Below are positions 4,954-63,828 of a stretch of DNA of 64,000 bases, one piece after another. Position 1 is the first letter of the stretch, and every line of letters begins with the position of its first letter. Source of the DNA: Escherichia virus ESCO5 (lineage: Duplodnaviria > Heunggongvirae > Uroviricota > Caudoviricetes); IMG/VR virus record IMGVR_UViG_2974610597_000001; one strand, written 5' to 3'. The notes under the pieces were generated by a model. The model ran no database searches and was not told the DNA's origin. It saw nothing but the letters and a program-made list of their open reading frames with translations. A program made the translations under genes and the position numbers.

Positions 4954-5499
4954 ATGATATTTACAAACTTTAAAAAATATATTCCTGAAGACCCTGAACT
5001 AAAAGAATTGGTAGAAGCAGAGAACATTCTTTTTCTTCGTTGCGATCAAGGTTACGATTGGTATGATTTACGTAGCACAGAATTCAATAACGATAAAATG
5101 AAAGTCGTTTTTGATGATCAAAATCGTATTGTGTTTTGGAATACTGATCCTACACTACTTTGCCCTGAAGATCTTTCTATAGCACAAGTAGACTTTAACA
5201 TAGATACTTTTGAGGATATTAGGAACAAGGTTCTGGATTTAGAAACCTTAACTCTTAAGAATAAAGAGTATTCCCGTGAAGAGTTGATGACACAAGCTAG
5301 TGCAAAAATTCGCTCTTTACAAGAAACAGCGGTAGCACTTATAACACCTTTACAGTATGCTAAAGATTTAGAAATGGCTACTGAAGACGAATTAGCTTAT
5401 CTTAAAAATCTTCAAGTTTATGTAGTTAAACTAAATCGTGTTCCGCTTCAAAAAGACTATCCTTACGCTATAGATTGGCCTACATTACCGACAGAATAA
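4954..5499 (+). CDS. Tail fiber assembly/chaperone-like protein
   Basis: 181-aa acidic protein immediately downstream of fiber gene (ATGA start/stop overlap); assignment by position only. Confidence 0.3.
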   Translation: MIFTNFKKYIPEDPELKELVEAENILFLRCDQGYDWYDLRSTEFNNDKMKVVFDDQNRIVFWNTDPTLLCPEDLSIAQVDFNIDTFEDIRNKVLDLETLTLKNKEYSREELMTQASAKIRSLQETAVALITPLQYAKDLEMATEDELAYLKNLQVYVVKLNRVPLQKDYPYAIDWPTLPTE

Positions 5500-10992: not shown

Positions 10993-11019
10993 GAAGCCCC
11001 GAAAGGGGCTTTCTTTTTA
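10993..11019 (+). terminator. Rho-independent terminator
   Basis: GC stem GAAGCCCC-GAAA-GGGGCTTC followed by TTTTTAT, right after stop of collagen-like fiber gene. Confidence 0.6.
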
Positions 11020-27483: not shown

Positions 27484-27503
27484 GAGGGGGATTTCTCCCC
27501 CTC
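27484..27503. other. GC stem-loop in intergenic region (possible terminator after terD)
   Basis: GAGGGGGA-TTTC-TCCCCCTC perfect inverted repeat; no strong T-run. Confidence 0.3.
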
Positions 27504-34107: not shown

Positions 34108-34149
34108 AAGTCTCTCCTATAAAATAGCCTCCCGAAGGAGGCTCATCTA

Positions 34150-56811: not shown

Positions 56812-56870
56812 TTGACGTTCGCCAGGTGGCGGCATAATATTTACCACGTAGGGCGGCAATGGTGCCGCTC
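56812..56870 (+). promoter_or_regulatory. Promoter-hairpin cassette 1
   Basis: TTGACG - 17 nt - TAATAT, then TTACCACGTA and hairpin GGGCGGCA-ATGG-TGCCGCTC. Confidence 0.55.
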
Positions 56871-56889
56871 ATTATTTGGAGTTAAAATC

Positions 56890-57087
56890 ATGGCAACATT
56901 GCACATTGTGGCGAAAGCTGGACAAATAAACGTGGTAGTAAACGGTTTTACTGAGTTCAGTCATCCCCAGGATGATCATGAAACGGTTTTATCTTTCATT
57001 GATTCTCTGTTAGAAATGGGAGTCATTACAGAAGACCAGCACGCTACAAAATGCAAGCGCGTTAATCAAATTGCAGGGATAGAATAA
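56890..57087 (+). CDS. Small early-type protein
   Basis: Start refined to ATG 56890 (SD GGAG upstream); ORF-track start 56812 would lie within the promoter. Confidence 0.4.
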   Translation: MATLHIVAKAGQINVVVNGFTEFSHPQDDHETVLSFIDSLLEMGVITEDQHATKCKRVNQIAGIE

Positions 57088-57093
57088 AAAGTA

Positions 57094-57155
57094 TTGACAA
57101 CAAACAACAACCTGATAAGATGTATCACATAGGGCGGCGGAATGGTCCACCGCTC
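57094..57155 (+). promoter_or_regulatory. Promoter-hairpin cassette 2
   Basis: TTGACA - 16 nt - TAAGAT, then GTATCACATA and hairpin GGGCGGCGG...CCACCGCTC. Confidence 0.5.
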
Positions 57156-57178
57156 ACAACAGAAGAGAGATTATAATC

Positions 57179-57451
57179 ATGGCATCATATAGCGCAACAA
57201 TGATCGTAGCTGGCACCACTGGTAAACCTATGAGCGGTGGCGGATCTTTCGCAAATATCAACATTGACGGGCGTTTATCCCTGGACGCAGCGATCACCGT
57301 GGCGCGGGAAACATTTAAGAAAGAATGTAAATTCAATAAACAAGATTATCTCGGTTTTGCTATTGAAAAAACCGCGCGCTTTGTTGATTATAAAAGCCCG
57401 AAGATGGTTGATACTACACTAAAAGCGCAAGATGTAGCGTTTTTGCTTTAA
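57179..57451 (+). CDS. Small early-type protein
   Basis: 90-aa ORF after SD AGAGAGA. Confidence 0.4.
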   Translation: MASYSATMIVAGTTGKPMSGGGSFANINIDGRLSLDAAITVARETFKKECKFNKQDYLGFAIEKTARFVDYKSPKMVDTTLKAQDVAFLL

Positions 57452-57454
57452 GGC

Positions 57455-57510
57455 TTGACATTAACGAATAATTTGTTAATATGTTACATAAAGCGGGAAT
57501 AGTTCCCGCT
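57455..57510 (+). promoter_or_regulatory. Promoter-hairpin cassette 3
   Basis: TTGACA - 17 nt - TAATAT, hairpin AGCGGGAA-TAG-TTCCCGCT. Confidence 0.5.
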
Positions 57511-57527
57511 ATTTGTAAGGTGGTAGA

Positions 57528-57785
57528 ATGTTTTACATCAAATTAAAAGGTCACGTGATCGCGTTCAAAGATAACGCTTTTTACAGATTAGCAAAATATG
57601 CGTTAATACATCCCCACTATGTTTATATAAGGGGGCGTGATGAAATAAATATCTTTGATCAAACAACATGCGAGAACATCGAGATCCGCAAGGTTGGCGT
57701 ACGTGATTATCGTACATCTTTCTACCCTTGCAAGGATTCAGCAAGTCTTTTTAAAGTATGCCAATTGTTGAAAAAAGGTGGTTAA
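57528..57785 (+). CDS. Small early-type protein
   Basis: 85-aa ORF after SD AAGGTGG. Confidence 0.4.
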   Translation: MFYIKLKGHVIAFKDNAFYRLAKYALIHPHYVYIRGRDEINIFDQTTCENIEIRKVGVRDYRTSFYPCKDSASLFKVCQLLKKGG

Positions 57786-57786
57786 T

Positions 57787-58344
57787 ATGGGCCGCGAATA
57801 TGTGATCCAGTCTTGGGTAAAACATGAAGCAGATGATCCGCGCATCATTCCCGATCATCTTATCGATGAATCCACGGGATATAGCGGTGAGCAAATAGGT
57901 AACAGATTAGCACGTAGTAACGGCAACGTAAAAGCGCGTTATGTGCGCCCTGGCTGGCTGGCAAATGGTAACGCTGATTTATCCAGTGCGGAAGATGCGA
58001 GCGACGGCGCGAAAGATAATCCTTTGTACAAAGTTGATCCGGCTTTTCGTGTCCTGGATGAATACCCCAGCAAGATAGCGGCGCTCGATCAGGCCCTGGA
58101 AAGTCAGCGCATCACCTGGACCGCTTACAACATGGCAAAAAACGTACTTGATGGTAAATTGATTCAAGCTGAAAGAAAATTAGCCAAAATTGCAGCCATA
58201 GCCCAGGAGGAAGACGAGGAGACAACGGAAGAGGAAGAGTACGAAGAGATCCCGCCGTTGTTGTGTGTTGATGCTTTTCCTGATTATCAGCCGACAGAGG
58301 AAGAAAAAAGGATCGCACTAGAAAACTTTGAAAATAGTCTTTGA
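57787..58344 (+). CDS. Hypothetical protein with acidic C-terminal region
   Basis: Start refined to ATG 57787 (SD AAGGTGG); Glu-rich stretch QEEDEETTEEEEYEE. Confidence 0.4.
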   Translation: MGREYVIQSWVKHEADDPRIIPDHLIDESTGYSGEQIGNRLARSNGNVKARYVRPGWLANGNADLSSAEDASDGAKDNPLYKVDPAFRVLDEYPSKIAALDQALESQRITWTAYNMAKNVLDGKLIQAERKLAKIAAIAQEEDEETTEEEEYEEIPPLLCVDAFPDYQPTEEEKRIALENFENSL

Positions 58345-58399
58345 CATATCGCCGCCACTGGCATAATATTTACCACGTAGGGCGGCAATGGTGCCGCTC
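58341..58399 (+). promoter_or_regulatory. Promoter-hairpin cassette 4
   Basis: TTGACA - 17 nt - TAATAT + TTACCACGTA + GGGCGGCAATGGTGCCGCTC; near-identical to cassette 1. Confidence 0.55.
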
Positions 58400-58426
58400 A
58401 TAGTGAAATTATGCAAGAGGCTTACA

Positions 58427-58522
58427 ATGATTAATAAAGGAAATAGCTTGACGGTTGGAACGATTAACGCTATCATTCTCGCCGTTCCATTTTGGGTTGT
58501 AGTAGCGGCTATTATTTTCTAA
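58427..58522 (+). CDS. Small hydrophobic peptide (31 aa, missed by ORF track)
   Basis: Own cassette upstream, SD AGAGG; MINKGNSLTVGTINAIILAVPFWVVVAAIIF. Confidence 0.35.
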   Translation: MINKGNSLTVGTINAIILAVPFWVVVAAIIF

Positions 58523-58531
58523 AAAATATTC

Positions 58532-58591
58532 TTGACAACGTTTTTTAATCTGATAAGATGTATCACATAGGGCGGCGGAATACTTCCCCGC
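58532..58591 (+). promoter_or_regulatory. Promoter-hairpin cassette 5
   Basis: TTGACA - 16 nt - TAAGAT + GTATCACATA + GGGCGGCGGAATACTTCCCCGCC; spacer near-identical to cassette 2. Confidence 0.5.
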
Positions 58592-58613
58592 CAAAACAAA
58601 AAAGGGTAACACA

Positions 58614-58976
58614 ATGAGCAAGCAAATCAATACTATCATGTTAAACCTGGTATCCTTCCGCGATGATATGAAAAATTTACCACGTGAAACGGTTGATATT
58701 CATGTTTCAGCTTATCGCGCCCTTATTGACATGTTACCGCTAAAACGTGATCAACATGCCGCTAATATGATGCTTAATGCTATGCTTAAAAAAATGATTC
58801 AAACGGATCTCACTCTGGCGTATGAGTATCAAGGGCGCTTATATGCAACTTACAACAAGGCGGTACCTGGTCTGGGAAGTACCGAAGAGTTGCACGGCTT
58901 AAACCTGGATCAAAACACTTGGGATAGTATGCGCCGCGTTATGGTATGGGCCGAAAGCGGTAAAATTTACGAATAA
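58614..58976 (+). CDS. Small early-type protein
   Basis: 120-aa ORF after SD AAAGGG. Confidence 0.4.
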   Translation: MSKQINTIMLNLVSFRDDMKNLPRETVDIHVSAYRALIDMLPLKRDQHAANMMLNAMLKKMIQTDLTLAYEYQGRLYATYNKAVPGLGSTEELHGLNLDQNTWDSMRRVMVWAESGKIYE

Positions 58977-58982
58977 AAACGG

Positions 58983-59042
58983 TTGACACTGTTTAAAATT
59001 CTAGTATAGTTTACCACATAGGGCGGGAAGTGGTTTCCCGCC
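58983..59042 (+). promoter_or_regulatory. Promoter-hairpin cassette 6
   Basis: TTGACA - 17 nt - TATAGT + TTACCACATA + GGGCGGGAA-GTGGT-TTCCCGCC. Confidence 0.55.
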
Positions 59043-59064
59043 AACAATGAAAAAGGTTATCATC

Positions 59065-59430
59065 ATGGCTATTAATATTAATGTTTCCTCTTATGCTACC
59101 CTGGCTAACACGGCTAAAATTGAATTATCCAGCATTGAGGCGGTGCATATTAGCGCCCGTCGCTGGTTTCAACAGTCCTACGGTAACACATATTTTTCTT
59201 TAATGGTTGACGTTGAGATCGGCGGCAAACTGATTGAAGTGGTAAACGTGCCGTTCCAATATGGATACGGGGATCACTTTGACACTGTAGCAATGGAAGA
59301 ATTTAGCAAGGTTATTAATATGGAAGGTAAAGAGTTTTCACGCGGCGAGTATCTTTCCCGTTTTTGCCGTGACAATGGGATCACTGTATACAGTCATGCA
59401 AGCGATGTTAAACGTAAAAAAGATCTATAA
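59065..59430 (+). CDS. Small early-type protein
   Basis: Start set to ATG 59065 by analogy with 59851 gene (same AAAGGTTATCAT-ATGGCT context); ATG 59047 also possible. Confidence 0.4.
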   Translation: MAININVSSYATLANTAKIELSSIEAVHISARRWFQQSYGNTYFSLMVDVEIGGKLIEVVNVPFQYGYGDHFDTVAMEEFSKVINMEGKEFSRGEYLSRFCRDNGITVYSHASDVKRKKDL

Positions 59431-59436
59431 AAAGCA

Positions 59437-59496
59437 TTGACAGCACGAATAAAAAGAGTAAACTGTATTACATAGAGAGCGGGAACACTTCCCGCC
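59437..59496 (+). promoter_or_regulatory. Promoter-hairpin cassette 7
   Basis: TTGACA ... TAAACT/TATTAC, hairpin GAGCGGGAA-CAC-TTCCCGCC. Confidence 0.45.
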
Positions 59497-59519
59497 TCAC
59501 TGAAAAAGAGAGAAAAATC

Positions 59520-59759
59520 ATGGCTAAATCTAAAATTTACAACGGTCACAAAAACAAAACTCATTGGAATGTAAGCCTTTGGATCAACAACGATGAAGGT
59601 TTTTATAATCTTGCGCGTGAATTTATTGCAGCTAACACCAATAAGAATGACGCAGCGCGTGATATGATGTTATTTCTTGAAAGTATGGATCAAGATAAAA
59701 CGCCAGACGGTTACAAGTTCAGTAAAACTGCAATCCGTGCCGCTATGGTAGGAATGTAA
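59520..59759 (+). CDS. Small early-type protein
   Basis: 79-aa ORF after SD AAAGAGAGA. Confidence 0.4.
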   Translation: MAKSKIYNGHKNKTHWNVSLWINNDEGFYNLAREFIAANTNKNDAARDMMLFLESMDQDKTPDGYKFSKTAIRAAMVGM

Positions 59760-59768
59760 TAAAATAGC

Positions 59769-59829
59769 TTGACACTGATTTTTATTCTGGTATAGTTTAT
59801 CACATAGGGCGGGAAGTGGTTTCCCGCCA
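59769..59829 (+). promoter_or_regulatory. Promoter-hairpin cassette 8
   Basis: About 85 percent identical to cassette 6 over about 88 bp incl. GGGCGGGAAGTGGTTTCCCGCC. Confidence 0.55.
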
Positions 59830-59850
59830 AATCAAAGAAAGGTTATCATT

Positions 59851-60078
59851 ATGGCTATCGTTATTGTTCGCGTATCCGGCACGGTTGGAATCTCCCAGGT
59901 AGTAGCAGTTATCACCGAGAAGAAAGGGGATGATCTTCACTCTTCCTTGAATAGCTGGGCGGTCGCTAACTTCGGGCAATGGTCGAGCGTCGAGTACATC
60001 GAATCCTACCAGGTGCCGACGATTAGCCTAACCGATCTCAACGTTGATCGCTTGTTGTGCCTGGATGAATTAATCTGA
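59851..60078 (+). CDS. Small early-type protein
   Basis: 75-aa ORF. Confidence 0.4.
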   Translation: MAIVIVRVSGTVGISQVVAVITEKKGDDLHSSLNSWAVANFGQWSSVEYIESYQVPTISLTDLNVDRLLCLDELI

Positions 60079-60088
60079 AAAAAGATTA

Positions 60089-60146
60089 TTGACACCGGAA
60101 AGAAAAAGAGTAGAATATATTACATAGGGCGGCAATGGTGCCGCTC
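60089..60146 (+). promoter_or_regulatory. Promoter-hairpin cassette 9
   Basis: TTGACA - 17 nt - TAGAAT + hairpin GGGCGGCAATGGTGCCGCTC. Confidence 0.5.
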
Positions 60147-60167
60147 ACAACTAAAAGAGAAATCATC

Positions 60168-60362
60168 ATGGCGCTTAAAAAACTAACAAGCAATACTCGT
60201 TGGGATGAAATTGACGGGGAAGTATACATTTTCGCCCGTAAACCAGGTGATCAAAAATGGTCAAAGGCTTTTACTTGCCACCCTGCAACAATAGACCTGA
60301 TAAAAAGGGAAGGTTTACGTGAAGCGGTAGCAAGAAGTTTACTGATCCCTTATAAAAAATAG
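60168..60362 (+). CDS. Small early-type protein
   Basis: Start refined to ATG 60168 (SD AAAAGAGA). Confidence 0.4.
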   Translation: MALKKLTSNTRWDEIDGEVYIFARKPGDQKWSKAFTCHPATIDLIKREGLREAVARSLLIPYKK

Positions 60363-60363
60363 T

Positions 60364-60426
60364 TTGACAATATGCTGTTATCTGGTAAAGTGTACGACAT
60401 AGGGCGGGGCAATAAGGCAACGCCCA
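60364..60426 (+). promoter_or_regulatory. Promoter-hairpin cassette 10
   Basis: TTGACA - 17 nt - TAAAGT, hairpin GGGCGGGGCAATAAGGCAACGCCC. Confidence 0.45.
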
Positions 60427-60443
60427 TTAATGAGGGTAGAATC

Positions 60444-60548
60444 ATGTTAGAGAAAATTTTCACGGTTGTAATAGTTGGCCTGGCGTTATCGGTTGGATTG
60501 GTTGCAACTATGGCTAACATGATCCTATCTTCCCACGGTATTGGATAA
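60444..60548 (+). CDS. Small hydrophobic peptide (34 aa, missed by ORF track)
   Basis: SD GAGGGTAG then ATG 60444; MLEKIFTVVIVGLALSVGLVATMANMILSSHGIG. Confidence 0.35.
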   Translation: MLEKIFTVVIVGLALSVGLVATMANMILSSHGIG

Positions 60549-60558
60549 GGTGAATCAA

Positions 60559-60774
60559 ATGATCACGAATAAGACAGGTAAAACAGAATTTTTACGCGGC
60601 TTGCAAATAGGTAAACCTGAGATCTGGCATTGCACTAAATCCGCGCATAATGAAATGAAAGATTTTACCGCTACTTTACAACGTGTTAAAATATCTATCA
60701 CACAGAAAAAAGCCTTGTTAGTAGTAGAAAACGAGATCCCGCAAACTATTATTATTGTCGAGCGTACAGCATGA
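60559..60774 (+). CDS. Small early-type protein
   Basis: Start refined to ATG 60559 (SD TAAGGTGA); track start 60541 is a TTG codon. Confidence 0.35.
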   Translation: MITNKTGKTEFLRGLQIGKPEIWHCTKSAHNEMKDFTATLQRVKISITQKKALLVVENEIPQTIIIVERTA

Positions 60775-61157
60775 AAACAGAAATCATTATTGAAATCATC
60801 AACGGCTATAAAGAAGCCTTTATTTTTGCTGAATCAGCAAGGGATCATGAAGGTAATTTTATTGATAACTTAGACGATTATGATTTTTCTCCTAGCGCGG
60901 ACGAACGGATCGCCCAAGATGTAACAGCCTTTATTAATGCTAATCTTGCCGCTATCTCTGAGGCAATGAGCGACGGCGCAACAGCCAACCAGATCGGGAA
61001 TGATTTACATTTTACCCGTAACGGTCACGGCGTAGGCTTTTGGGATCGCCCTGAAATATACACCACTAACACGGCGAACCGCCTAACCAATGCAGCTAAG
61101 TTTATGCCGAACGTGTCGGCTTACATTGGTGAAGATAATTTGATTTATATTGAATAA
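60771..61157 (+). CDS. Hypothetical protein
   Basis: 128-aa ORF, ATGA overlap with previous gene. Confidence 0.4.
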   Translation: MKTEIIIEIINGYKEAFIFAESARDHEGNFIDNLDDYDFSPSADERIAQDVTAFINANLAAISEAMSDGATANQIGNDLHFTRNGHGVGFWDRPEIYTTNTANRLTNAAKFMPNVSAYIGEDNLIYIE

Positions 61158-61163
61158 AAAGTA

Positions 61164-61220
61164 TTGACACAGATCGCCAGTGTGCTAATATTTACCACGT
61201 AGGGCGGCAATGGTGCCGCC
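61164..61220 (+). promoter_or_regulatory. Promoter-hairpin cassette 11
   Basis: TTGACA - 17 nt - TAATAT + TTACCACGTA + GGGCGGCAATGGTGCCGCC. Confidence 0.55.
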
Positions 61221-61238
61221 GATAATGAGGAAAGTAAA

Positions 61239-61538
61239 ATGGAAACTATCGCTATTGTTACCGTAGAAAAACTGGTTGTTGGTGATGTATTCGCGTTAAT
61301 GGTGCCTAACAGCAGCAAGCTGGGCGCTTATGAAGTAATGGATCATAAAAATGAATCATTTGGCGACGGTTGCACAATGGCGGTAAAATCTTTAAAGGAT
61401 GGAATCATCCGCCAGGCTAACTGGCACAAAGGGAATCAAGTCGGTTTAATATCAGCTAATTTCTTGCCAGAAGAGCAAACGTTAGACCAACTATCAGGCG
61501 GTAAGACGTTAGCCGAACTACTGGAAACAGCGATCTAA
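61239..61538 (+). CDS. Small early-type protein
   Basis: 99-aa ORF after SD GAGGAAAG. Confidence 0.4.
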   Translation: METIAIVTVEKLVVGDVFALMVPNSSKLGAYEVMDHKNESFGDGCTMAVKSLKDGIIRQANWHKGNQVGLISANFLPEEQTLDQLSGGKTLAELLETAI

Positions 61539-61546
61539 TCAACAAA

Positions 61547-61562
61547 GGGGCGGCAACGCCCC
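61547..61562 (+). other. Promoter-less conserved GC hairpin (RNA structure or U-tract-less terminator)
   Basis: GGGGCGGCAACGCCCC perfect stem-loop right after stop codon. Confidence 0.4.
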
Positions 61563-61582
61563 ACATCAGAAAGGAAAAGATT

Positions 61583-61819
61583 ATGAGTATTGCAACAGTA
61601 TTAAACGCCGTTAAAACCGCTGAATCATCCGGCTTGCATGTTGAGCTTATAGATCAACCAGGTGGCGATCTCCTTGTCCAGGTTTACCCGCCGAAAGTAG
61701 GGGATGATTATTATTGGGCTTATTCTGATACGTTCGAACAAGTAGACACGAAAGCGATCACGGCTTTTATTTTAAAAACTATTGAAGAAAATAACTTTCA
61801 TCATAACATCAATCAATAA
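61583..61819 (+). CDS. Small early-type protein
   Basis: 78-aa ORF after SD AAAGGAAAAG. Confidence 0.4.
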   Translation: MSIATVLNAVKTAESSGLHVELIDQPGGDLLVQVYPPKVGDDYYWAYSDTFEQVDTKAITAFILKTIEENNFHHNINQ

Positions 61820-61828
61820 ACCATAAGC

Positions 61829-61844
61829 GGGGCGGTAACGCCCC
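61829..61844 (+). other. Promoter-less conserved GC hairpin, second copy
   Basis: GGGGCGGTAACGCCCC, one base different from 61547 copy. Confidence 0.4.
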
Positions 61845-61873
61845 ATTAAACGCAATAGGAAGAGGATAGACGC

Positions 61874-62164
61874 ATGAAAAAGATGATCGCAGTAGTTGCC
61901 CTGGTTGTTGGTATTAACGCGCCTGTACTGGCTAATGAGTTGCCAGAATCCATCACGCTAACCGATATCAACGCAATAAACCGGATCGGCGTTAATTATC
62001 GCCTATGCCTTGCCGCTAAAACTTTCCAGGACGGCACGACAGAATACCACGGATTCGAGGGTATCCGCTGCGGTGAGCTTGCACGCGACCTTAAGGAAGA
62101 TCCAGACCTTGAGGCCATACCGATGACCGTAAACGGTAAAGCTTACGTAAACCGCCAACAATGA
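61874..62164 (+). CDS. Secreted/periplasmic small protein
   Basis: 96 aa; signal peptide MKKMIAVVALVVGINAPVLA. Confidence 0.4.
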   Translation: MKKMIAVVALVVGINAPVLANELPESITLTDINAINRIGVNYRLCLAAKTFQDGTTEYHGFEGIRCGELARDLKEDPDLEAIPMTVNGKAYVNRQQ

Positions 62165-62295
62165 GAAAGGTAATCATCACAATGGGGATCGTAGTAGCAA
62201 CGCTGGCGCTTATCCCCTTCATGGTTGAACATGTGCTGATCAGTGTTGTCCTTGTAGTCAGTGACCTATTGGAAACGGTTGGCACCTGGTTTTAA
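62161..62295 (+). CDS. Small membrane peptide (44 aa, missed by ORF track)
   Basis: ATGA overlap with upstream stop; MRKVIITMGIVVATLALIPFMVEHVLISVVLVVSDLLETVGTWF. Confidence 0.35.
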   Translation: MRKVIITMGIVVATLALIPFMVEHVLISVVLVVSDLLETVGTWF

Positions 62296-62303
62296 GATAA
62301 TAA

Positions 62304-62331
62304 ATAGGGCTTGCAATAGTCCTATTTTTTG
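62304..62331 (+). terminator. Rho-independent terminator
   Basis: Hairpin TAGGGC-TTGCAATA-GTCCTA (one G-U pair) followed by TTTTTT. Confidence 0.5.
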
Positions 62332-62469
62332 TTATACTTATTGAACGGGCGGCACCTGGGAGCAGGGGAAGATAATCACCGGAAGACCCCGCTATATATT
62401 GATAACTAACGCCTATCAAACAACAAAACATCAAAGGAACAAACTATCAAATCTTTACAATTCTACCTA

Positions 62470-62528
62470 TTGACACCGGATCACGCTTACATTATTATTT
62501 ATCACGTAGGGCGGGAATGTTTCCCGCC
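62470..62528 (+). promoter_or_regulatory. Promoter-hairpin cassette 12
   Basis: TTGACA - 17 nt - TACATT/TATTAT + TTATCACGTA + GGGCGGGAATGTTTCCCGCC. Confidence 0.5.
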
Positions 62529-62546
62529 TGATTTAGGAGTCATATC

Positions 62547-62780
62547 ATGATCGAACAAATTAAAAGCACTAAACCAAATGTTAACGGTAATGTTTCTCAC
62601 TTTATCGGGGATAATGAAAGAGGTACACCGTACGCCGCCGTAACCGTTCAACCGAACGGGGATTATTGGTTTACCGTGTACGGATCTTACTCTTTTGGAC
62701 GTTCGGCACATGATAAGATCTTGCAAGTGGTTAAGCCTACTGGGAAGAATATCACAGCAGAAAAATTTTATAAAAAATAG
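62547..62780 (+). CDS. Small early-type protein
   Basis: 77-aa ORF after SD TAGGAG. Confidence 0.4.
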   Translation: MIEQIKSTKPNVNGNVSHFIGDNERGTPYAAVTVQPNGDYWFTVYGSYSFGRSAHDKILQVVKPTGKNITAEKFYKK

Positions 62781-62781
62781 C

Positions 62782-62842
62782 TTGCTTTATAGCTCCTGTT
62801 AACTTATAGTTATTGCGTAGGGCGAGCAATACAGCAAGCCCA
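62782..62842 (+). promoter_or_regulatory. Degenerate promoter-hairpin cassette 13
   Basis: TTGCTT ... TATAGT + TTATTGCGTA + GGGCGAGCAATACAGCAAGCCC. Confidence 0.35.
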
Positions 62843-62858
62843 CAAAGAGGAAAATAAA

Positions 62859-63227
62859 ATGAGCAAATCAGCAATTAAAGCACTTGAAAAAGCACAAGAA
62901 GTGATCGCAACGTCAACCACTGGCGCAAAGGTTAATCTCGTTTGTTATCTGACAGATGAAACTATCCGTAAAAATTGGCGTAATGCTGATTTACTGGCTT
63001 GCTTATTGATTAATAGTGTCGCTAATGCTTTCCAGTGTGAAACAGCCGAGAGCCTGGAGGAAAACTTGTTTGATAATATGGATCAAGCCATTGAAACCTA
63101 TATACAATCAAACCTGGATAGCTGGAACAGTAAAACATGGCCCGACAATTTACGCGATACAACTGATCAACTGATCCGCCTTGCCCTGATGGTTGAACGC
63201 GATAACGTTCACAACCGCACAAAGTAA
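62859..63227 (+). CDS. Hypothetical protein
   Basis: 122-aa ORF after SD AAAGAGGAAA. Confidence 0.4.
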   Translation: MSKSAIKALEKAQEVIATSTTGAKVNLVCYLTDETIRKNWRNADLLACLLINSVANAFQCETAESLEENLFDNMDQAIETYIQSNLDSWNSKTWPDNLRDTTDQLIRLALMVERDNVHNRTK

Positions 63228-63235
63228 GATTATAC

Positions 63236-63260
63236 AAGGGCGCACTAAGCGCCCTTTAAC
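63236..63260 (+). other. GC hairpin/weak terminator
   Basis: AAGGGCGCACTAAGCGCCCTT followed by TAACG; paralog of terminator at 63800. Confidence 0.35.
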
Positions 63261-63366: not shown

Positions 63367-63786
63367 ATGAACATTAAATCAAATAATCCGGCTTACTCTT
63401 TCGATAATGCTTTTTGTCACGGGAGCGCCGCTAAAGGCTTCGAAATTGAGGGTAAGCTGGTTATTGTGAACGTTGACGGGGAAGAGGTTGCAGTATATCC
63501 GGCAAACGATGTTAAAAGCCGTCTACAATGCCGCATGGATGTTACCGCATATCAGCTTGATCCGATCCGTGTAGTTGCCCTGGTCCTGGAGGAAGAGATC
63601 AAAGCAATGCATCATAGCAATAAGTTTATTGGTGACGCGCAGGACAATATGAAAGTATGCCGCAGTAAAGTTAACGAAGCATTGAAAGAATACGGTTTTA
63701 AGGATCTGATGATTAAACGTGATGAAAAATTCCGCTTTCGTAATGACCTGGCGAACCGGATCTACTCAATCTATGAAGCGTTATAA
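63367..63786 (+). CDS. Hypothetical protein
   Basis: 139-aa ORF after SD AAAGGATAA. Confidence 0.4.
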   Translation: MNIKSNNPAYSFDNAFCHGSAAKGFEIEGKLVIVNVDGEEVAVYPANDVKSRLQCRMDVTAYQLDPIRVVALVLEEEIKAMHHSNKFIGDAQDNMKVCRSKVNEALKEYGFKDLMIKRDEKFRFRNDLANRIYSIYEAL

Positions 63787-63799
63787 TTGACAACAAAAC

Positions 63800-63828
63800 A
63801 AGGGCGCACCAAGCGCCCTTTCTTTTTG
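63800..63828 (+). terminator. Rho-independent terminator
   Basis: AGGGCGCACCAAGCGCCCT followed by TTCTTTTTG. Confidence 0.55.

Follow-up and report, generated by a model that had tools for sequence, protein, structure and literature searches.

Organisation of the locus

The stretch of DNA considered here, referred to as the window, comprises 64,000 nucleotides of Escherichia virus ESCO5 (IMG/VR record IMGVR_UViG_2974610597_000001), and the region under study is 100% identical to ESCO5 (KX664695.3; Phapecoctavirus, Stephanstirmvirinae). An initial annotation of the window, made from the sequence alone, had drawn attention to two short, near-identical hairpins, designated here as HP1 (61547..61562, + strand) and HP2 (61829..61844, + strand), and had offered for them the roles of RNA-processing sites such as those of RNase III, 3'-protective or stability elements, factor-dependent terminators or degraded remains of promoter-hairpin cassettes. 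The two hairpins belong to a single four-gene early transcription unit of Escherichia phage ESCO5, where they flank a single small ORFan (gene B), and their sequence, their fate in related phages and their probable roles at the DNA and the RNA levels are examined below.

The unit runs in the order promoter, 5' untranslated region (UTR) hairpin, gene A, HP1, gene B, HP2, gene C, gene D and terminator, all on the + strand. The operon promoter (TTGACA-16-TAATAT; 61164..61191), annotated in phAPEC8 as a host-dependent promoter, is followed by the post-promoter 5'-UTR hairpin GGCGGCA-ATGG-TGCCGCC (61203..61220), a member of the promoter-hairpin cassette family and a 'PHIRE promoter' in phAPEC8. Gene A (61239..61538) encodes an ORFan of 99 aa and gene B (61583..61819) an ORFan of 78 aa (phrog_20600), a facultative cassette between HP1 and HP2 whose hairpin-to-hairpin unit measures 282 bp. 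Gene C (61874..62164) encodes a 96 aa ORFan with a signal-peptide-like N-terminus and gene D (62161..62295) a hydrophobic protein of 44 aa. The operon terminator (62302..62327), a 10-bp stem with a T-tract that overlaps the next promoter, is an ARNold terminator in phAPEC8. The products of all four genes are ORFans, their hits being confined to PHROGs without an assigned function, with none to a Pfam family; genes B to D have no promoter of their own and hence depend on read-through. From 58.6 kb to the end of the window, and over a further 14 kb of ESCO5, every gene lies on the + strand.

Sequence, position and folding of HP1 and HP2

HP1 reads GGGGCG-GCAA-CGCCCC and begins 8 nt after the stop codon of gene A (TAA, 61536-61538), with the ATG of gene B 20 nt further on, while HP2 reads GGGGCG-GTAA-CGCCCC and begins 9 nt after the stop codon of gene B (TAA, 61817-61819), with the ATG of gene C 29 nt further on. 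Each consists of a 6-bp all-G/C stem and a 4-nt loop of the GNRA type; the two are identical at 15/16 positions, the sole difference being the N position of the loop. Together with the untranslated sequence behind them they form two linkers, the HP1 linker (61544..61582, + strand), comprising the hairpin, the gene B 5'-UTR and its Shine-Dalgarno (SD) sequence, and the HP2 linker (61829..61873, + strand), comprising the hairpin, the gene C 5'-UTR and its SD. The untranslated gaps that hold HP1 and HP2 are 44 and 54 nt long, SD included.

The initial annotation was exact in its coordinates, in the near-identity and the perfect stem-loops, and in placing the hairpins behind stop codons. It had also reported neither a -35/-10 nor a U-tract, and both absences were borne out: no sigma-70-like match of at least 9/12 is found on the + strand directly 5' of HP1 or HP2, the nearest one (61360-61389) lying within gene A, and the 9 nt 3' of the stems, where ACATCAGAA and ATTAAACGC follow HP1 and HP2, respectively, contain only 1 and 2 T. 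It overlooked that the loops are GNRA on the + strand, that HP1 and HP2 are direct repeats 282 bp apart exactly bracketing gene B, and that TTTGTTGATT comes after HP1 on the minus strand, where a terminator scan flags both hairpins as terminator-like.

Within the 64 kb, GGGGCGNNNNCGCCCC matches HP1 and HP2 only, and none of the 100 dinucleotide-preserving shuffles contained a match (0/100). The folding energy in the local context is -14.1 kcal/mol for each hairpin, and both are retained when 421 nt of context are folded, in the minimum free energy as well as in the centroid structure; compared with shuffles, the context of HP1 has a z-score of -3.67 and that of HP2 a weaker one of -1.58. The stems are not extended in 51-, 62- or 421-nt folds, with no longer helix around them, and the SD sequences nearby stay unpaired. 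A search with Rfam covariance models returned no match at E<=1 within 60500-63000. HP1 and HP2 are real and non-random elements.

Loss, gain and replacement of gene B in related phages

About 50 phAPEC8-like phages are 95-99% identical to the region and the rV5-like phages (Vequintavirus) about 80% over part of it, with gene content of the early region differing among these relatives. The GenBank phage collection proved far richer than IMG/VR and the metagenomes, in which protein-anchored searches for the locus recovered 3, 3 and 5 loci only. Many of the near-identical phAPEC8- and rV5-like GenBank genomes are labelled as phages of Campylobacter, Pseudomonas, Acinetobacter, Serratia or Klebsiella (among them Campylobacter phage B15, Pseudomonas phage PsgM04F and Acinetobacter phage ABPW7); these host labels look doubtful, the sequences being 95-99% identical to coliphages.

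The initial annotation had suggested an inspection of the same loci in related phages, and this comparison revealed that gene B is deleted, inserted or swapped precisely at the HP1 and HP2 joints. In at least nine related phages gene B is absent and genes A and C are joined by a single chimeric hairpin, made up of the HP1 upstream flank and GCAA loop followed by the HP2 downstream flank. The junction was read in anhysbys, ZCKP1, ukendt, 536P1, TSP7_1, ETEC-TG, vB_Ec-G1 and KKP_3264, and B15 was counted as the ninth on its BLAST match alone. The deletion junction predicted for a crossover between HP1 and HP2 is TCAACAAAGGGGCGG[C/T]AACGCCCCATTAAACGC; a 201-bp query taken across the anhysbys junction matched in one piece in nine distinct phages without gene B and elsewhere in two pieces spanning 483 bp (201+282). 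At least three junction variants occur; vB_Ec-G1 has an exact chimera of the ESCO5 type, and in ETEC-TG the stem is 7 bp long. The gene C haplotype does not track the absence of gene B, since gene C of ZCKP1 is that of the window while that of anhysbys differs at 15 positions; the region is therefore a mosaic, or else the loss or gain of gene B is a recurrent event.

Replacements follow the same boundaries. Upstream, phiWec190 has another gene, and its allele of gene B, 48% identical, has the same two hairpins around it; identity to the window changes from 29% upstream to 92% in the HP1 linker (61544-61594), 54.5% in the gene body and 93% in the HP2 linker (61829-61900). With phita32, phi92 and EmilieFrey, homology sets in at 61552, within the loop of HP1; in these three, gene B is preceded by a promoter of its own and by a longer hairpin that includes the 3' arm of HP1. 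In L012, phi92 and phita32 the gene B homolog stands behind a full promoter and hairpin, the 3' arm and UTR of which are homologous to HP1. On the other side of gene B, HP2 of phi92 is cut past the first GGGG and fused to another gene, and the HP2 linker stands before a different gene in phita32. HP1 is invariant across all the A-B junctions examined, the loop in WPEC2 being GTAA. At the same position rV5 carries another hairpin, GGCGG-TTA-CCGCC, which fits either selection for some hairpin there or the replacement of a cassette. As shown by comparative genomics, HP1 and HP2 act as a pair of recombination joints around gene B; this is their best-supported property and one that the initial annotation had missed.

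Other repeats in the same region

Further repeats nearby show a comparable behaviour. Two copies of GGCGGCAATGGTGCCGC hairpins surround an extra gene of 63 aa in UP17, SKA64, Schickermooser, KKP_3264 and anhysbys; the extra gene sits between the 'up' gene and gene A (window equivalent 61157-61239; loci L013, L014, L015, L016 and L006), and at this site, where the hairpin at 61203..61220 is the joint, ESCO5 has one merged cassette consisting of the first promoter and the second UTR. A second hairpin pair lies further downstream on the + strand, its copies 564 bp apart with a promoter and a 139-aa gene between them. Copy 1 (63236..63256; AAGGGCGC-ACTAA-GCGCCCTT) follows a stop codon by 8 nt and has no T-tract, and copy 2 (63800..63820; AAGGGCGC-ACCAA-GCGCCCTT) is followed by a T-tract and forms a bidirectional-looking terminator. 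The chimeric junction of the 63236/63800 pair was constructed beforehand as a prediction and then searched for in the relatives. It was found contiguous in vB_Ec-G1, ASO2A, nepoznato and anhysbys, the last confirmed by alignment, and spanned about 806 bp in most of the relatives. In these four phages the cassette between the copies is missing and one chimeric hairpin takes the place of the pair.

A deletion was also found at a repeat that forms no hairpin. The 14-bp exact repeat GTAGTTGCCCTGGT occurs within two coding regions, at 61892-61905 and 63571-63584, and nieznany (L005 2222-2455) has a 1679-bp deletion between the two copies, leaving a fusion open reading frame (ORF) in which codons 1-11 of gene C are joined to the C-terminal half of the gene at 63367-63786. 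Since this deletion took place at a non-hairpin repeat, recombination in the region is driven by short homology. The hairpins as special recombination sites were toned down on the same ground; by this comparison they are the commonest gene-boundary repeats and not demonstrably special recombination substrates.

The promoter-hairpin cassette family

HP1 and HP2 resemble a part of a larger cassette that recurs in the surrounding region. The full cassette opens with a sigma-70 promoter (-35 and -10), after which come about 11 nt with CAC(G/A)TAG at their end, a GC hairpin, 10-30 nt, an SD and an ATG. At least eight copies, with 10-15 nt between the hairpin and the SD, are present in the surrounding 7 kb; of these elements HP1 and HP2 have just those from the hairpin onward, up to the ATG. 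The sibling cassettes with promoters are at 56812, 57455, 58532, 58983, 59769, 60089, 60364, 61164 and 62470, and their hairpins carry the label 'PHIRE promoters' in phAPEC8 but have no annotation otherwise. The family spans 56812-62535 of the window, with another copy at about 58341, and the spacing from the -10 to the hairpin is fixed at about 11 nt. The cassette hairpin would begin about 4-6 nt into the transcript, as expected of a 5'-terminal mRNA stabiliser.

Some other observations were made on the same unit. KX664695.3 (v3) contains, at about 145431-145541 (L002 about 1985-2095), a 55-bp tandem duplication of the promoter/hairpin segment 5' of gene A, which the window (61164-61228) lacks, and the locus tags jump there from 00001 to 00274. 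Because the numbering switches at the duplication, it is probably a leftover overlap of assembly ends and not biology. Gene C starts with the signal-peptide-like MKKMIAVVALVVGINAPVLA (61874-61940) and gene D overlaps the gene C stop (ATGA); the two genes may encode a pair of small secreted or membrane proteins conserved from phAPEC8-like to rV5-like phages.

Evidence at the RNA level

The loops of both HP1 and HP2 are GNRA on the mRNA (+) strand, and the variants GCAA and GTAA are still GNRA. When the ATGG cassette family is excluded, all of the intergenic GC hairpins with 4-nt loops in the window (6/6) have a GNRA or UUCG loop on the local sense strand. In the late region, the hairpins at 34126-34143 and 27484-27503, associated with minus-strand genes, show C(UUCG)G and GAAA when read on that strand, which is the sense strand there, and the tetraloop hairpins at 10994 and 53296 likewise have the hyperstable loop on the coding strand.

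The same orientation is observed for the exact 16-mer in a sample from IMG/VR. Among 77 flank families the GNRA loop is on the sense strand in 54 and antisense in 7 (binomial p = 4e-10), and a strong T-tract is absent in 43 of the 54 GNRA-on-sense families, the T content past the stem forming a continuum across the class. The class medians are 11 nt from the stop codon to the hairpin and 21 nt from the hairpin to the start codon, for which HP1 (8/20) and HP2 (9/29) are typical.

In Escherichia coli, the selective processing and stabilization of RNA (SRPS) is an established mechanism in which an intercistronic stem-loop halts 3' exonucleases after cleavage by RNase E (PMC10667835). HP1 and HP2 resemble such elements, each being a stable sense-strand stem-loop between cistrons that leaves the next ribosome-binding site free. 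The most likely RNA role of the pair would be that of an SRPS-like barrier to mRNA decay. The 3'-protective or stability function suggested by the initial annotation is plausible to this extent, in view of the sense-strand GNRA loops, the strand bias and the class geometry, although HP2 decays or is lost in several relatives.

Proposed explanation and its alternatives

The explanation that we favour, with somewhat better than even confidence, is that HP1 and HP2 are promoter-less copies of a linker module, acting as recombination joints around gene B and likely also as barriers to mRNA decay. In this proposal the small ORFan genes that fill the early hyperplastic region of the phAPEC8-like and rV5-like phages are set apart from one another by a GC-rich stem-loop linker module. 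At the DNA level, short-homology recombination or replication slippage between the 16-bp copies would delete, insert or replace gene B, equivalent linkers of co-infecting relatives would recombine likewise, and one functional hairpin-SD linker would remain before the next gene after each event, the recombination being driven by homology and not specific to hairpins. At the RNA level, each copy would fold as a GNRA-capped 6-bp hairpin between the stop codon and the next ribosome-binding site, and the hairpins of the polycistronic early mRNA would act as decay barriers, neither terminating transcription nor serving as RNase III targets, in a role that would be modulatory and dispensable.

Several points weigh against this explanation. 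The presence or absence of gene B can be read either as insertion or as deletion, and, apart from supplying a repeat, the hairpin structure may contribute nothing to recombination. The class sample of the exact 16-mer, which occurs in more than 120 IMG/VR contigs, took in 120 loci at most. HP2 is weakened in phAPEC8, UP17 and WPEC2, its 5' arm is lost in SKA64, Schickermooser and L009, and it is degraded in phita32 and L012; the variants among the relatives comprise AGGGCG, GGGGCC, a terminal G.U pair, a deletion of the 5' arm, degradation and truncation at the junction. Since HP2 is weakened or lost in several phages, any RNA role is dispensable. The HP2 stem is no more conserved than its flanks, the invariance of HP1 is uninformative, its flanks being equally conserved, and no compensatory substitutions were seen in HP1 or HP2 among the relatives examined. 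A 6-bp hairpin of -14 kcal/mol is only a moderate barrier to exonucleases, and a literature search found no transcript-end or half-life data for rV5- or phAPEC8-like phages.

In an alternative reading, which we consider unlikely but worth serious attention, the hairpins would have no RNA function and would be hitch-hiking remnants of the promoter-hairpin cassettes, recopied by linker recombination and of importance as short DNA repeats only. The weakening, truncation or loss of HP2 in many relatives that keep gene C, the lack of covariation, the deletions at non-hairpin repeats and the homology of the HP1 3' half and UTR to the promoter-bearing cassette of phi92, phita32 and L012 are all in its favour. 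The last of these also lends some substance to the degraded cassettes of the initial annotation, but the ESCO5 copies are intact. It does not account for loops that are GNRA on the sense strand and still GNRA in the variants, for the strong sense bias of the 16-mer across unrelated phages, which the tetraloop hairpins of this genome share, or for stems that are kept or even longer in the chimeric junctions (7 bp in ETEC-TG). Effects on transcription were considered as well. Efficient intrinsic termination by E. coli RNA polymerase requires a U-tract, and a + strand intrinsic terminator was rejected, the hairpin being present but the U-tract absent and no call being made by the scan. Weak, leaky + strand attenuators that step down transcription of the operon, as proposed for the stem-loops of the promoter-early stem-loop (PeSL) cassettes, appear to us decidedly unlikely: one RB49 PeSL stem-loop cut lacZ expression as strongly as rrnB T1 (PMC2839356), the same 16-mer with a T-tract is a terminator stem in other phages and the T content after the stem varies continuously across the class, but HP1 and HP2 are followed by only 1-2 T in 9 nt, no + strand terminator is called and genes B to D, lacking their own promoter, need read-through. 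The factor-dependent terminators proposed in the initial annotation are unsupported, the untranslated gaps being just 44 and 54 nt and containing an SD.

The remaining alternatives invoke dedicated recognition of the hairpins or a different strand. A substrate of RNase III is about 11 bp at minimum and ideally about 22 bp (PMC3867540), so the 6-bp stems of HP1 and HP2, around which no longer helix forms, fall short of it and the RNase III option of the initial annotation is not sustained. More generally, processing by RNase III or by a structure-specific endoribonuclease of the phage, cutting the early transcript into monocistronic units, would agree with the regular placement between cistrons and with a hairpin family before nearly every early gene; it is made a slender possibility by the short stems, by the lack of any Rfam match and by the diversity of loops and stems in the family (ATGG, TAG, GTGGT, GNRA), which argues against one specific protein. 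We would give a little more weight, while still regarding it as improbable, to the broader notion that the GC stem-loops are recognition elements of a dedicated system, and more than short repeats or passive barriers to decay: either a structure-specific, integron-attC-like recombination pathway by which hairpin+ORFan cassettes would move from phage to phage, or a phage-directed RNA 'punctuation' that processes early mRNA at every hairpin. A near-identical TAATCAACA-hairpin-AC cassette in three unrelated low-GC viral contigs (L068, L078 and L099) hints at a spread across phage families. Termination of antisense (minus-strand) transcription, for which the minus-strand TTTGTTGATT after HP1 and the flagging of both hairpins by the scan could be cited, is highly improbable: no minus-strand genes are nearby, all being on the + strand from 58.6 kb onward, the loops on that strand, UUGC and UUAC, do not form stable tetraloops, the minus-strand tail of HP2 is poor, an A-rich upstream flank occurs in no family of the class sample and the orientation is overwhelmingly GNRA-on-sense. 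Least credible of all are antitermination sites of the lambda nut (boxB) type; the short GC stems with GNRA-type loops, placed downstream of early promoters, recall them, but no boxA-like match is found within 61500-61900, the loops have 4 nt and not the 5 nt of boxB, and the loops of the sibling hairpins are unrelated.

Two observations on related hairpins are added here. In L068, L078 and L099 the arrangement TAAATCAACAGT-GGGGCGGCAACGCCCC-ACCATTTCAAC-SD-ATG occurs twice, around an ORF of about 56 aa and with flanks much like those of HP1 (copies at 947-962 and 1167-1182 of L068, and at 5059-5074 and 5276-5291 of L078, minus strand); a megablast search of L068 against GenBank phages gave no match, and the likeness to HP1 could be due to a shared cassette ancestry across phage families or to convergence. 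In rV5 (L003 about 513-535, after gp171) the hairpin GGGGCC-GAAAA-GGCCCC stands directly after a stop codon, and its loop is the same as that of the lambda nutL boxB.

Comparison with known systems

The comparison of genomes places a PeSL-like joint logic, with gain, loss and replacement of single ORFans, in two further subfamilies of large coliphages that are widely used in phage therapy, and shows that a bare 16-bp promoter-less hairpin is able to serve as a joint. The natural variants, with or without gene B and with HP2 intact, weakened or deleted, constitute an allelic series for tests of mRNA stability. For annotation, the 'PHIRE promoter' labels of phAPEC8 sit on these hairpins.

At the RNA level the nearest known system is SRPS (PMC10667835), with which HP1 and HP2 share a stable sense-strand intercistronic stem-loop just past the stop codon and the lack of a terminator tail, and their stability lies between those of the -9.3 and -25.4 kcal/mol reporters used there. 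They differ in having stems shorter than typical repetitive extragenic palindromic (REP) elements, in the evolutionary lability of HP2 and in being known here from sequence alone. The rho-independent terminators built on the GGGGCGG(C/T)AACGCCCC stem in other phages have the identical 16-nt GNRA hairpin on the sense strand after a stop codon, but carry a T-tract, which HP1 and HP2 do not.

At the DNA level, the 'linker' sequences of Botstein and Campbell for modular phage evolution (as discussed in PMC2839356) are similarly short conserved gene-boundary sequences between divergent modules, of which the allele swap in phiWec190 is an example; theirs is a concept with no defined family, whereas the linkers here are hairpin+UTR units of about 40-50 bp. 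A closer parallel is provided by the PeSL cassettes described in the T4-type phages RB49/phi1, PST and nt-1 (Arbiol et al. 2010, PMC2839356; Comeau et al. 2014, PMC4122927), where an RB49 crossover was mapped within the loop and T4 deletions were noted at GGGC/GCCC inverted repeats; the authors stated that no evidence of such shuffling existed in other viruses (PMC2839356/PMC4122927). In the literature searched, PeSL are mentioned for T4-like phages only, and the rV5 genome paper does not describe the present hairpins. Common to both are repeated intergenic modules of a G-run/C-run stem-loop and an SD that flank early-region ORFans, and recombination from copy to copy that explains the insertion, deletion and replacement of single ORFans, with crossovers in or next to the stem-loop; for HP1 and HP2 such recombination is evident from comparison of the genomes. 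The differences are also clear. HP1 and HP2 have no promoter, the defining criterion of PeSL; PeSL stem-loops lie mostly within or overlapping the promoter, whereas the sibling cassette hairpins here are 11 nt past the -10, in the transcribed 5' UTR; PeSL are found in T4-like phages and HP1/HP2 in Stephanstirmvirinae/Vequintavirinae; and the latter have GNRA loops, no U-tract and a shared repeat of just 16 bp. By this comparison HP1 and HP2 appear to function in the manner of PeSL linkers; they are a variant that lacks the promoter and fall outside the PeSL family in the strict sense. The joint role is a modest extension of a system known from T4-like phages, and the hairpins themselves are ordinary phage intergenic elements.

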